Source: Escherichia coli
GTDB lineage: Bacteria; Pseudomonadota; Gammaproteobacteria; Enterobacterales; Enterobacteriaceae
Direction: 5' to 3' (one strand)
NCBI RefSeq assembly: GCF_044647545.1
Contig: NZ_CP172818.1
Length of the DNA stretch: 64,000 bases
The notes beneath the pieces are model-generated. The model did no database searches, was not told the origin of the DNA, and saw nothing but the letters and a program-made list of their open reading frames with translations. The position numbers and the translations under genes are program-made. Shown one piece after another: positions 2,202 through 11,240 of this stretch; position 1 is the first letter of the stretch; each line of letters opens with the position of its first letter.

Positions 2202-3629
2202 ATGTCGATCAAAACCAGTAATACAGATTTTAAGACACGCATCCGTCAGCAAATTGAAGATCCGATCATGCGCAAAGCGGTGGCAAACGCGCAGCAGCGT
2301 ATCGGGGCAAATCGGCAAAAAATGGTCGATGAATTGGGGCACTGGGAGGAATGGCGCGATCGGGCCGCCCAGATACGTGATCATGTTCTGAGTAATCTCG
2401 ACGCTTATCTGTACCAGCTCTCAGAAAAAGTGACGCAAAACGGCGGTCACGTCTATTTTGCAAAAACCAAAGAAGACGCTACCCGCTACATTTTACAGGT
2501 TGCCCAACGCAAAAATGCCCGGAAGGTGGTGAAATCTAAATCGATGGTGACCGAAGAGATTGGTGTCAATCATGTGTTGCAGGATGCTGGCATTCAGGTG
2601 ATTGAAACCGATCTGGGTGAATACATTCTCCAGCTGGATCAAGATCCGCCCTCTCATGTTGTGGTCCCGGCAATTCATAAAGATCGCCATCAGATCCGTC
2701 GAGTGCTACACGAACGTCTGGGCTATGAGGGGCCGGAAACGCCTGAAGCGATGACCTTATTCATTCGGCAAAAAATCCGCGAAGATTTCCTCAGTGCTGA
2801 AATAGGTATTACCGGCTGTAATTTCGCGGTGGCAGAGACCGGTTCGGTATGCCTGGTGACCAATGAAGGTAATGCGCGAATGTGTACCACGCTGCCTAAA
2901 ACGCATATTGCAGTGATGGGAATGGAGCGTATTGCCCCCACGTTTGCCGAGGTAGATGTATTGATCACCATGCTGGCGCGCAGTGCCGTTGGTGCACGTT
3001 TGACGGGATACAACACCTGGCTGACAGGACCGCGCGAAGCGGGGCACGTTGATGGTCCTGAAGAGTTTCATCTGGTTATTGTCGATAACGGGCGTTCTGA
3101 GGTGCTGGCCTCTGAATTTCGGGATGTGCTGCGCTGTATTCGCTGCGGGGCTTGTATGAATACTTGTCCGGCATATCGCCATATTGGCGGTCATGGATAT
3201 GGCTCTATTTATCCAGGGCCAATTGGTGCGGTGATTTCTCCGCTACTTGGCGGCTATAAAGATTTTAAAGATTTACCCTACGCCTGCTCTTTATGCACTG
3301 CTTGTGACAACGTGTGTCCGGTGCGTATTCCGCTGTCAAAACTGATTTTGCGTCATCGTCGGGTGATGGCTGAAAAAGGGATCACCGCAAAAGCAGAGCA
3401 ACGGGCGATAAAAATGTTCGCTTATGCCAATAGTCATCCAGGATTGTGGAAAGTCGGGATGATGGCCGGCGCTCATGCGGCAAGCTGGTTTATCAATGGC
3501 GGCAAAACACCACTCAAATTTGGCGCGATTAGCGACTGGATGGAAGCACGCGATCTTCCTGAAGCTGACGGAGAGAGTTTCCGTAGTTGGTTTAAGAAAC
3601 ATCAGGCGCAGGAGAAAAAGAATGGATAA
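2202..3629 (+). CDS. ykgF: LutB-like iron-sulfur protein (4Fe-4S ferredoxin-type, CxxCxxCxxxCP motifs)
   Basis: ORF track 2202..3629, 475 aa; two CxxCxxC clusters visible in translation. Confidence 0.85.
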   Translation: MSIKTSNTDFKTRIRQQIEDPIMRKAVANAQQRIGANRQKMVDELGHWEEWRDRAAQIRDHVLSNLDAYLYQLSEKVTQNGGHVYFAKTKEDATRYILQVAQRKNARKVVKSKSMVTEEIGVNHVLQDAGIQVIETDLGEYILQLDQDPPSHVVVPAIHKDRHQIRRVLHERLGYEGPETPEAMTLFIRQKIREDFLSAEIGITGCNFAVAETGSVCLVTNEGNARMCTTLPKTHIAVMGMERIAPTFAEVDVLITMLARSAVGARLTGYNTWLTGPREAGHVDGPEEFHLVIVDNGRSEVLASEFRDVLRCIRCGACMNTCPAYRHIGGHGYGSIYPGPIGAVISPLLGGYKDFKDLPYACSLCTACDNVCPVRIPLSKLILRHRRVMAEKGITAKAEQRAIKMFAYANSHPGLWKVGMMAGAHAASWFINGGKTPLKFGAISDWMEARDLPEADGESFRSWFKKHQAQEKKNG

Positions 3630-4317
3630 TCGGAGCGAATTTTTGAATAACGTTGCTCAGGCACTGGGTCGCCCGCAGCGACTTGAACCGCAAGCAGAAG
3701 ATGCGCCGCTAAACAACTATGCTAACGAGCGGCTTACCGAACTTAACCAACAGCAGCGCTGTGACGCGTTTATCCAGTTTGCCAGCGATGTTATGTTGAC
3801 GCGCTGTGAACTGACCAGCGAGGCGCAGGCCGCAGAAGCTGCAATACGTCTGTGTAAAGAGCTGGGAGATCAGTCGATCGTGATTAGCGGTGACACGAGG
3901 CTGGAGGAATTGGGGATTAGCGAACGTTTGCAGCAGGAATGCAATGTCGTTGTTTGGGATCCGGCGAAAGGTATTGAGAACATATCACAAGCAGAGCAGG
4001 CTAAAGTTGGCGTAGTGTATGCTGAATATGGTTTAACCGAATCGGGAGGCGTGGTTCTTTTTTCCGCCGCCGGGCGCGGGCGTTCATTGAGCCTGCTCCC
4101 GGAATCTTCTCTTTTTATCCTGCGTAAAAGCACTATCCTGCCGCGTGTAGCGCAACTCGCAGAAAAATTGCATCAGAAAGCGCAGGCCGGTGAACGAATG
4201 CCTTCCTGCATTAACATCATTAGCGGCCCCAGTTCAACGGCGGATATTGAGCTTATCAAAGTCGTCGGAGTTCATGGCCCGGTGAAAGCGGTGTATCTGA
4301 TTATTGAGGATTGTTGA
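3622..4317 (+). CDS. ykgG: LutC-like subunit, 231 aa from internal ATG overlapping ykgF stop by 8 bp
   Basis: ORF track 3475..4317; ATG at 3622 preceded by GGAG; operon context. Confidence 0.75.
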   Translation: MDNRSEFLNNVAQALGRPQRLEPQAEDAPLNNYANERLTELNQQQRCDAFIQFASDVMLTRCELTSEAQAAEAAIRLCKELGDQSIVISGDTRLEELGISERLQQECNVVVWDPAKGIENISQAEQAKVGVVYAEYGLTESGGVVLFSAAGRGRSLSLLPESSLFILRKSTILPRVAQLAEKLHQKAQAGERMPSCINIISGPSSTADIELIKVVGVHGPVKAVYLIIEDC

Positions 4318-4427
4318 GAGAGATATGAAGTCTGGACATAAACCTGAAGAAGGCATACGAGGTTGAAAATAGCGTTTAGGACAACCTGACTTAACCCCGT
4401 TCCGTCATGGTTATGCTGCTCTTCTGT

Positions 4428-4460
4428 AAATATCCTGGCATTACTAATGCCAGGATATTT
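4428..4460. other. Perfect 33-bp palindrome (15-bp arms, 3-bp loop) between convergent ykgG and ykgH
   Basis: AAATATCCTGGCATT-ACT-AATGCCAGGATATTT read directly; no U-rich tail on either strand. Confidence 0.6.
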
Positions 4461-4559
4461 AAAGTGAAAAAGACAGGCATCCATTCCTGAAAACGGGTTC
4501 CCTTCCCGGTCATTGTCACTTCAGCTTTATACAGGCACTCTCTATCAGAATGCTGTTTA

Positions 4560-5058
4560 TTACTGCCCAGAGTTTTGTTGGTATTCATCTACCATTTTTT
4601 TGACAAGGCAAAACATTACAGAAATCACAATGCTTAGAAAAAATCCCAGAATCAGGCAAATGGCAGCAGGATATTTACTTTTTATTTCCGGTGAGCTTAT
4701 GGTTACACAGTCATCACCGTTCGGATACAATGACCAGTTCCTGGTCAGGTATATCATTTTTGTATAAAGCTCACTGTTAATTGCTGAAGGTGTTTGTATC
4801 TCATCGAGAACTTGCCTGCCGTTATGGTATTCTGACGCATACCATTTGATAATAGACGCATGCACGCGAGATATTTCCGCTTCAGCAGTTGGTAAATCTC
4901 TCTTATCTCCTGACCATTCCAGCTTTATTTCTCGTATACAGAAACAACAGCACCATTGCCATACAGATAGCTATAATAAAAAGGATAATACGAATCTTTT
5001 TCTTCAGATAAAATAAAATCTCAATCAGATCGATATCCTGTTTGATTTGTTCACTCAT
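4560..5058 (-). pseudogene. ykgH: ykgH-like inner membrane protein, reading frame broken by a 1-bp shift near 4930-4945
   Basis: ATG at 5058 opens a 53-codon frame that stops at about 4900; C-terminal 101 aa are in another frame (track ORF 4560..4865); the two parts overlap around an A-run. Confidence 0.5.
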
Positions 5059-5251
5059 AATATATCCAGAAAATAAAATCTGCCGCAGATAAATGAATTA
5101 ATAGTCTGTATCAGGAATGTTCGGGTTAAATATCAGCAAAAAGCCAGCATCATGAATACTGGATATGAAGCATGAGAGTTACCTCAGTGTTTTATATAAG
5201 GATTCGGTCCTCATAGTAGAACGGTAACTCTCAATCTGATAGGTTCCTGAG

Positions 5252-11189: not shown

Positions 11190-11203
11190 TTGTTTTTGCA
11201 TAA

Positions 11204-11240
11204 AACCGCGCCATGTCTGCATATGGCGCGGTTTCTCTTA
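11204..11240 (+). terminator. Rho-independent terminator downstream of betT
   Basis: GC-rich stem AACCGCGCCAT / ATGGCGCGGTT with 8-nt loop followed by TCTCTT, 15 nt after betT stop. Confidence 0.6.

Follow-up and report, generated by a model that had tools for sequence, protein, structure and literature searches.

A Single-Copy, Escherichia coli-Specific Palindrome between the Convergent ykgG and ykgH Genes, Most Simply a 3′-UTR Hairpin

A long perfect palindrome lies between the convergent genes ykgG and ykgH of Escherichia coli, and the question that it raises is what, if anything, it does there. An initial annotation of this DNA, made from the letters alone, had suggested a bidirectional hairpin terminator, a protein-binding site or an RNA processing site. 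Our analyses of a 64,000-nt stretch of E. coli DNA (the window), of complete E. coli genomes and of published K-12 transcript maps indicate that the palindrome is real, statistically striking, present in a single copy and specific to E. coli, and that it is most simply explained as a 3′-UTR hairpin of a known general kind. Among the three proposed functions, an RNA-level 3′-end or putative processing hairpin is the one that survives best.

In the window, the lutABC-like genes ykgE, ykgF and ykgG follow one another on the plus strand and are succeeded by ykgH and then betA on the minus strand. ykgG (lutC), the last gene of ykgEFG, occupies 3622–4317, as given by annotation transferred from NZ_CP033850, and the minus-strand stop codon of ykgH lies at 4560–4562. 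The palindrome does lie between the two convergent genes, midway in a spacer of 242 bp, and is included in the ykgG 3′ UTR, 107–110 nt past the stop codon. It had been described as AAATATCCTGGCATT-ACT-AATGCCAGGATATTT at 4428–4460, with perfect arms of 15 bp, and is present exactly so. Its symmetry is, however, larger than was noted. One additional base pair gives a perfect palindrome at 4427–4461, with 17-bp arms around the central base C4444, and the dyad, which belongs to neither strand, extends further to 4424–4464, where 20-nt arms around the same central base are 95% symmetric with G4426/A4462 as the sole mismatch. Position 4462 is C in seven other E. coli strains, which results in a 41-bp palindrome, CTGTAAATATCCTGGCATTA-N-TAATGCCAGGATATTTACAG; in an alignment of eight strains, those of O157 and AR452 carry it without any mismatch. 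The G+C pairs are found in an inner stem-loop, CCTGGCATT-ACT-AATGCCAGG (4434–4454), while the outer parts of the arms (4424–4433 and 4455–4464) consist almost entirely of A and T (TAAATAT...ATATTTA).

A palindrome of this length is far more than chance would produce. None of the other perfect hairpins of the window is as long: the runners-up have G+C-rich arms of 11–12 bp, including a terminator-like one at 11203–11234 that is flanked by A and T tracts, and the longest perfect arm in 200 block shuffles was 12 bp. Folding of the transcript, which had been proposed as a check, yielded a strong hairpin on both strands: the folding energy of the 91-nt context was −32.7 kcal/mol (z −5.6) for the plus strand and −35.7 kcal/mol (z −6.8) for the minus strand, and none of 200 shuffles was as stable in either case. 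The energy of the hairpin RNA ranged from −22 to −29 kcal/mol on both strands of every haplotype sampled. The stem comprises 19 pairs closed by a 3-nt loop in perfect haplotypes, and 16 pairs plus a bulged extension in the window. No paper printing the palindrome sequence was found in our literature search.

The region that contains the palindrome is present in 5,141 of the 5,426 complete E. coli genomes, and in 5,139 genomes haplotype-specific 50-mers had a single match per genome, so that the suspicion of a repeat family, which further genomic copies would have raised, does not arise. The second place found by the 91-mer search (median of 2 per genome) and by the plasmid search is the match of the palindrome to itself on the reverse strand; the same figure in another search came, we would guess, from an island between ykgH and betA that splits the matches in some lineages. 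A search of the window with up to 3 mismatches allowed found no second copy of the palindrome, either whole or as a half-site. Because the palindrome is single-copy, REP/BIME, ERIC, MITE and other dispersed repeats were rejected. The earlier remark that it differs from REP elements is also borne out, given that REP elements are multi-copy and G+C-rich, whereas this palindrome is single-copy and AT-rich with a perfect stem of 17–20 bp. An Rfam search with E-values up to 10 returned just spurious eukaryotic microRNA matches far under the gathering scores, and a known structured-RNA family was rejected as well. Viral contigs contained no matches to the palindrome. Plasmid matches were to 13 Escherichia records, several of them megabase-sized, each with the region once, and in 7 of them the match overlapped an annotated ykgH. 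None of the RefSeq records among the matches listed had an annotation under the palindrome. A scan of metagenome contigs with a flanking 18-mer recovered the same three haplotypes that are described below, unrelated chance matches and two chimeric contigs.

All but two of the 5,141 carrier genomes (5,139) have one of three haplotypes. The perfect haplotype, whose center is ACT or AGT, is found in 2,083 genomes (~38% of the complete E. coli genomes), the K-12 type (GGTATTACC) in 1,878 and the B2 type (GACATTAAT) in 1,178. Compared to the perfect form, each of the other two has two transitions that are exactly 6 nt apart, at 4439 and 4445 in the K-12 type and at 4438 and 4444 in the B2 type, and these four positions are the most variable ones. 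The K-12 type has a G·U pair in the plus-strand RNA and an A·C mismatch in the minus-strand RNA, the B2 type an A·C mismatch in the plus-strand RNA and a G·U pair in the minus-strand RNA; overall, the stem contains a mismatch or wobble in ~60% of the carrier genomes. In the right arm, the sole substitution is the window's own A4462. The window form, which combines an ACT center with A4462, is rare, as its 91-mer was matched exactly by just 68 records, and it differs from the K-12 palindrome at three positions. The central base varies among strains and is C, G or A; a C/G flip at the center is the expected product of a hairpin template switch. By parsimony, the perfect 41-bp form is probably ancestral, with the K-12 and B2 types each breaking one pair. 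In the alignment of eight strains, 5 of the 41 columns inside the palindrome are variable vs. 25 of the 204 columns in the rest of the spacer. There is thus no sign of purifying selection on the palindrome, whose substitution density is that of its flanks, and no compensatory changes in the stem were found in this alignment or among the three haplotypes. In strain RM9088, an IS1A copy has inserted inside the right arm directly after GGATAT (locus L003 1559–2312, ~window 4458) and destroyed the palindrome.

The palindrome, the adjoining small-RNA region and ykgH together lie in an AT-rich islet (4318–5250, assigned to neither strand), which has a G+C content of 0.34–0.44 vs. 0.5–0.6 on either side and is found solely in E. 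coli. DNA homology to other Enterobacteriaceae extends no further than the ykgG stop codon, after which different genes follow. Given that the boundary of the islet is at 4318, the palindrome is not at that boundary, and a role for it as islet boundary or recombination site was rejected. ykgH itself (4560–5058, minus strand) is a pseudogene in the window, with a 168-bp in-frame deletion and a 2-bp frameshifting deletion at ~4933. The former is common to the ykgH lineage of the window and shortens the product to 166 amino acids, compared to 222 in K-12. Damage to ykgH is also seen elsewhere, as an internal stop in O157 Rafaela_II and as a frameshift in RM9088. Its product is an orphan: the 48 relatives of YkgH are near-identical E. 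coli-type sequences or fragments, bar one at 54% identity that is encoded on a metagenome contig, and there are none outside Escherichia. The other divergent matches came from error-prone or IS-disrupted assemblies, and a scan of genome contigs found just two tiny contaminant contigs. We noticed that B2 strains have the autotransporter gene hyxB between ykgH and betA (ATCC 25922, locus L004 2513–3091), that the ykgH-like gene with 54% identity (contig L010 2–262) also follows an autotransporter beta-domain, and that the YkgH N-terminus has a sub-threshold Wzz-like match. ykgH may be the remnant of an adhesin island.

Does the palindrome terminate transcription? The absence of a U-tract from both strands, which the initial annotation had pointed out, is essentially right: the tail of the inner stem reads AUAUUUA on both strands and has a U-tail score of 1.33–1.36, the tails of the full stem being UGAAAAAG (plus strand) and AAGAGCAG (minus strand). 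Scores of 3.06–3.45 were obtained for real terminators of the window, among them the bidirectional terminator at 11203–11234 (3.3–3.4) and the UCUUUUU tail of the ykgH 3′-UTR RNA (3.06). Thus, the stable stem-loop of an intrinsic terminator is there and the U-rich tract directly 3′ of it is not, and our terminator scan did not call the palindrome. With a classical bidirectional terminator (A-tract, G+C stem, U-tract), such as that at 11203–11234, the element has in common that it is an extended palindrome with A/T-only outer arm parts; the classical terminator has a G+C content of 56% and a tail score of 3.3–3.4, whereas the palindrome has 34% and 1.3, respectively.

Published transcript maps, which are all from K-12, whose palindrome is unlike that of the window at three positions, lead to the same conclusion. 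They also revealed a feature next to the palindrome that had been overlooked initially. The ykgH 3′ UTR (4467–4559, minus strand) was named in RIL-seq studies as a putative Hfq-associated, 3′-UTR-derived small RNA (PMC5145812, PMC8175672); RNA-seq reads accumulate there, and two northern probes failed (PMC8175672). Given that the published probe sequences match the plus strand at 4479–4517, this RNA is encoded on the minus strand just before the palindrome. The Term-seq data of Adams et al. (2021; PMC7815308, supplementary file 1) include a 3′ end of class "orphan" at 324603(−), with read values of 43,492 and 126,276, whose printed 61-mer matches K-12 and ends with ...CCUGUCUUUUU, followed by CACUGUAAAU. 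As the K-12 palindrome is at MG1655 324564–324596 and 324603 corresponds to window 4467, this 3′ end precedes the base of the extended hairpin by 3 nt, and the abundant minus-strand RNA therefore excludes the hairpin. The RNA has a hairpin and a U tract of its own: a UCUUUUU tract (U5; 4467–4473, minus strand) ends at the mapped 3′ end, and directly before it folds and alignment place a small hairpin, CAGGAAUGGAUGCCUG (CAGG...CCUG; 4474–4489, minus strand), which is probably a weak intrinsic terminator of the ykgH 3′-UTR RNA. The stem of this small hairpin is lengthened to 6 bp in B2 strains, owing to a G-to-U change.

The curated Term-seq lists of the same study, which cover three K-12 conditions, contain no other 3′ end from 324,400 to 324,799 on either strand (PMC7815308), and thus none at the foot of the palindrome hairpin, although plus-strand expression was low. 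Transcript 3′ ends mapping to the palindrome were what would have made it a terminator in the initial annotation. The TERMITe supplements have no entry for ykgG or ykgH, and both genes are weakly expressed (gene-level table, PMC7373196). In the Rho table (PMC7815308), 324578(−) is bicyclomycin-sensitive, with read-through of 16/160 in untreated cells and 199/572 with bicyclomycin; ~65% of the minus-strand coverage drop at this position remains under bicyclomycin. The same table lists 324913(+), antisense to ykgH (score 6.7, p = 2e-23), which is ~317–320 nt beyond the palindrome. A Rho region so placed suggests that plus-strand transcription passes the palindrome. The poor tail score and the published 3′-end maps, with a minus-strand end before the hairpin, none at its foot and a plus-strand Rho region ~320 nt beyond, disfavor a classical intrinsic terminator, either uni- or bidirectional. 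The palindrome is not the terminator of the ykgH 3′-UTR RNA, nor is it an efficient intrinsic terminator in either direction.

If the palindrome acts at all, it would act as RNA. The reading that we favor, which we regard as plausible and still short of probable, is that it is a stem-loop without U-tract in the 3′ region common to both convergent transcripts, serving as an exonuclease barrier for a Rho-terminated ykgEFG mRNA and as a backstop on the minus strand. On the plus strand, the ykgEFG (lutABC) mRNA, which has no intrinsic terminator, would continue through the palindrome; Rho would stop transcription within antisense ykgH, some hundreds of nucleotides downstream; and 3′-to-5′ exonucleases would then trim the transcript back to the hairpin, which would set and protect the mature 3′ end. 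On the minus strand, where the ykgH 3′-UTR RNA of K-12 ends before the hairpin, only read-through transcripts include it, and in these the hairpin could cause a pause or serve as a backstop before Rho terminates transcription.

In transcripts that Rho terminates, the mature 3′ end is reportedly set by a stem-loop, and REP elements are similar 3′ stabilizers. The palindrome resembles such stem-loops in being a stable hairpin without U-tract in a 3′ UTR with a same-strand Rho-dependent termination region downstream, and differs from them in that the K-12 lists map no 3′ end at its foot. Dar and Sorek (2018; PMC6061677) deal with transcripts of that kind, which are terminated by Rho and trimmed back to a stable stem-loop. 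Consistent with a barrier are the high stability of the hairpin on both strands and in all haplotypes and the absence of an alternative terminator: the terminator scan found no intrinsic terminator between the ykgG stop codon and the palindrome. Loci of other Enterobacteriaceae are informative in this respect. At three of them, a G+C-rich hairpin without U-tract is found 13–17 nt after the ykgG stop codon, for example ACCGCTCTGGC-N7-GCCAGAGCGGT; such post-ykgG hairpins are located at L018 2710–2738, ~15 nt after the stop codon in L019 and L020, and in L021, and the genes beyond them differ (GntP permease, IS1, DUF386). E. coli is without this hairpin. The islet replaced the DNA that held it, so the palindrome is now the sole strong structure in the ykgEFG 3′ UTR and would take the place of the post-ykgG hairpin of other Enterobacteriaceae. 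Against a barrier are the flank-level variation, the lack of compensatory pairs and the toleration of an IS1 insertion in one strain. The missing plus-strand 3′ end at the hairpin foot in the K-12 Term-seq lists also counts against it, as weak evidence, because ykgEFG was weakly expressed in those conditions.

The main and serious rival to this 3′-UTR stem-loop is a young palindrome without selected function, which was brought in by, or arose in, the acquired ykgH islet, is decaying neutrally and forms an RNA hairpin as a by-product. We consider it possible, if on balance rather unlikely. The confinement of the element to E. coli, the orphan status of YkgH outside Escherichia, the loss of homology to other genera past the ykgG stop codon and the repeated degradation of ykgH to a pseudogene are all consistent with neutrality, as are a substitution density equal to that of the flanks, arm changes that are all uncompensated and confined to one arm bar the window's A4462, the central place of the perfect form by parsimony, from which 1,878 K-12-type and 1,178 B2-type genomes each break one pair, and the IS1 insertion in an arm of one strain. 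A 41-bp perfect palindrome is not, however, a chance product, and it is still perfect in ~38% of genomes. Its hairpin, at least −22 kcal/mol in strength on both strands of every haplotype sampled, is strong, and it lies exactly between two 3′ ends, as a functional hairpin would be expected to. Moreover, the divergence within E. coli is too low to separate neutrality from weak constraint. Anatomically, the closest described class is that of the collision-type bidirectional terminators (Ju et al., 2019; 10.1101/2022.10.23.513370), in which a hairpin pauses the polymerases that arrive from both sides and head-on and trailing collisions release them, neither a U-tract nor Rho being needed. These terminators, known from SEnd-seq, were described as Rho-independent and located between convergent E. 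coli genes; they "do not resemble intrinsic terminators," and their collisions must be positioned by a stem-loop (10.1101/2022.10.23.513370). The convergent gene pair, the same strong stem-loop encoded on both strands and the lack of resemblance to an intrinsic terminator all fit. That the palindrome belongs to this class is nevertheless unlikely. Both 3′ ends of its members are past the hairpin and overlap, whereas the dominant minus-strand end here precedes the hairpin and the published K-12 Term-seq ends include none on the plus strand near it (PMC7815308); bicyclomycin-sensitive regions are reported on both strands, at 324578(−) and 324913(+), although 65% of the minus-strand drop persists with the drug; collisions should be rare, as both ykgG and ykgH are weakly expressed (PMC7373196); and the ykg genes are absent from the main text of 10.1101/2022.10.23.513370.

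A DNA site for a dimeric protein, be it a transcription factor, the sigma-54 holoenzyme or a roadblock responsible for the nearby 3′ end, would account for the perfect dyad symmetry. This is the second function proposed by the initial annotation, and we found no support for it and regard it as improbable. The palindrome lies downstream of both genes and has nothing to regulate, its half-sites of 17–20 bp are far longer than usual operators, and the most variable positions (4438, 4439, 4444 and 4445) are located in what would be the protein-readable core. TGGCAT-N5-ATGC has a sigma-54-like GG/GC spacing on both strands, but the sigma-54 core (TGGCA-N7-TGC) occurs 7 times in the window vs. 4.8 expected by chance. 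With the core at chance frequency and a gene downstream in neither direction, a sigma-54 promoter was rejected. In the K-12 haplotype, two K-12-type substitutions produce CCTGGTATTACCAATG, which has a perfect TGGTnnnACCA core (locus L005 5571–5586, equivalent to window 4434–4449) and agrees with the PdhR box AATTGGTnnnACCAATT at 10 of 14 positions, beside a lactate-utilization operon. This PdhR/LldR-like box is missing from the window (TGGCattACTA) and from the perfect haplotypes, and the main text of the PdhR and LldR gSELEX papers, with its tables, lists no ykg site. A FadR-type GntR operator was rejected on these two grounds, the K-12-only core and the lack of a SELEX site. A genomic SELEX peak of the RpoE holoenzyme does fall between ykgG and ykgH, at ~324608 in current coordinates (323832 in the old ones; PMC5493296), and no convincing sigma-E promoter was seen near it by eye. 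That peak corresponds to ~window 4472, within ~10 bp of both the palindrome and the small-RNA 3′ end. RNase III, for which about two helical turns are the usual minimum, might alternatively cleave the 19–20-bp stem in read-through and plus-strand transcripts and so separate the convergent transcripts; on the minus strand, cleavage would permit trimming to the Hfq-protected U tract. The stem extends over about two helical turns in the perfect and K-12 forms, and its 19 pairs in perfect haplotypes (16 and a bulged extension in the window form) are in line with the ~20 bp of uninterrupted double-stranded RNA of an RNase III substrate. The abundant 3′ end is just 3 nt from the stem base, and the hairpin upstream of this end is weak. 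Even so, the U5 tract after the small hairpin explains the end more simply, and a coverage drop of which ~65% persists with bicyclomycin fits termination before the palindrome hairpin, so that cleavage by RNase III seems very doubtful. Similarly remote is a putative active maturation or insulation element, perhaps self-symmetrized at the DNA level by hairpin template switching. RNase III or another hairpin-specific factor would recognize the 19–20-bp stem in read-through transcripts, generate or sharpen the end of the ykgH 3′-UTR RNA 3 nt away and uncouple the convergent transcripts, and template switching would explain both the C/G flip at the center and the paired substitutions near the apex.

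With the 3′-UTR stem-loop as the favored reading, it is probably at the palindrome that the ykgEFG (lutABC) mRNA and the read-through transcripts of ykgH gain stable 3′ ends. If it is indeed an exonuclease barrier, it would be one more case of horizontally acquired DNA that gave a resident operon a replacement 3′-end structure. The practical value of these findings is small. A mildly interesting point is how close the palindrome lies, at 3 nt, to the end of a candidate Hfq-dependent small RNA, for which northern validation failed. For the design of probes or deletions at the locus, it is useful to know that the 3′ end of this RNA, at window 4467, precedes the hairpin, and ykgH is often named in metabolic-engineering papers.

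The two chimeric metagenome contigs mentioned above are both joined via a stretch that resembles the Illumina P7 adapter. In the window, CTGAAGAAGGCATACGAGGTTG at 4346–4368 resembles the P7 adapter sequence CAAGCAGAAGACGGCATACGAGAT. One of the two contigs (L025) begins with the P7 adapter itself and departs from E. coli right after an A5 tract, and on account of this start and of the divergence directly after the tract it looks like an assembly chimera. The other (L031) departs from E. coli at the same junction.
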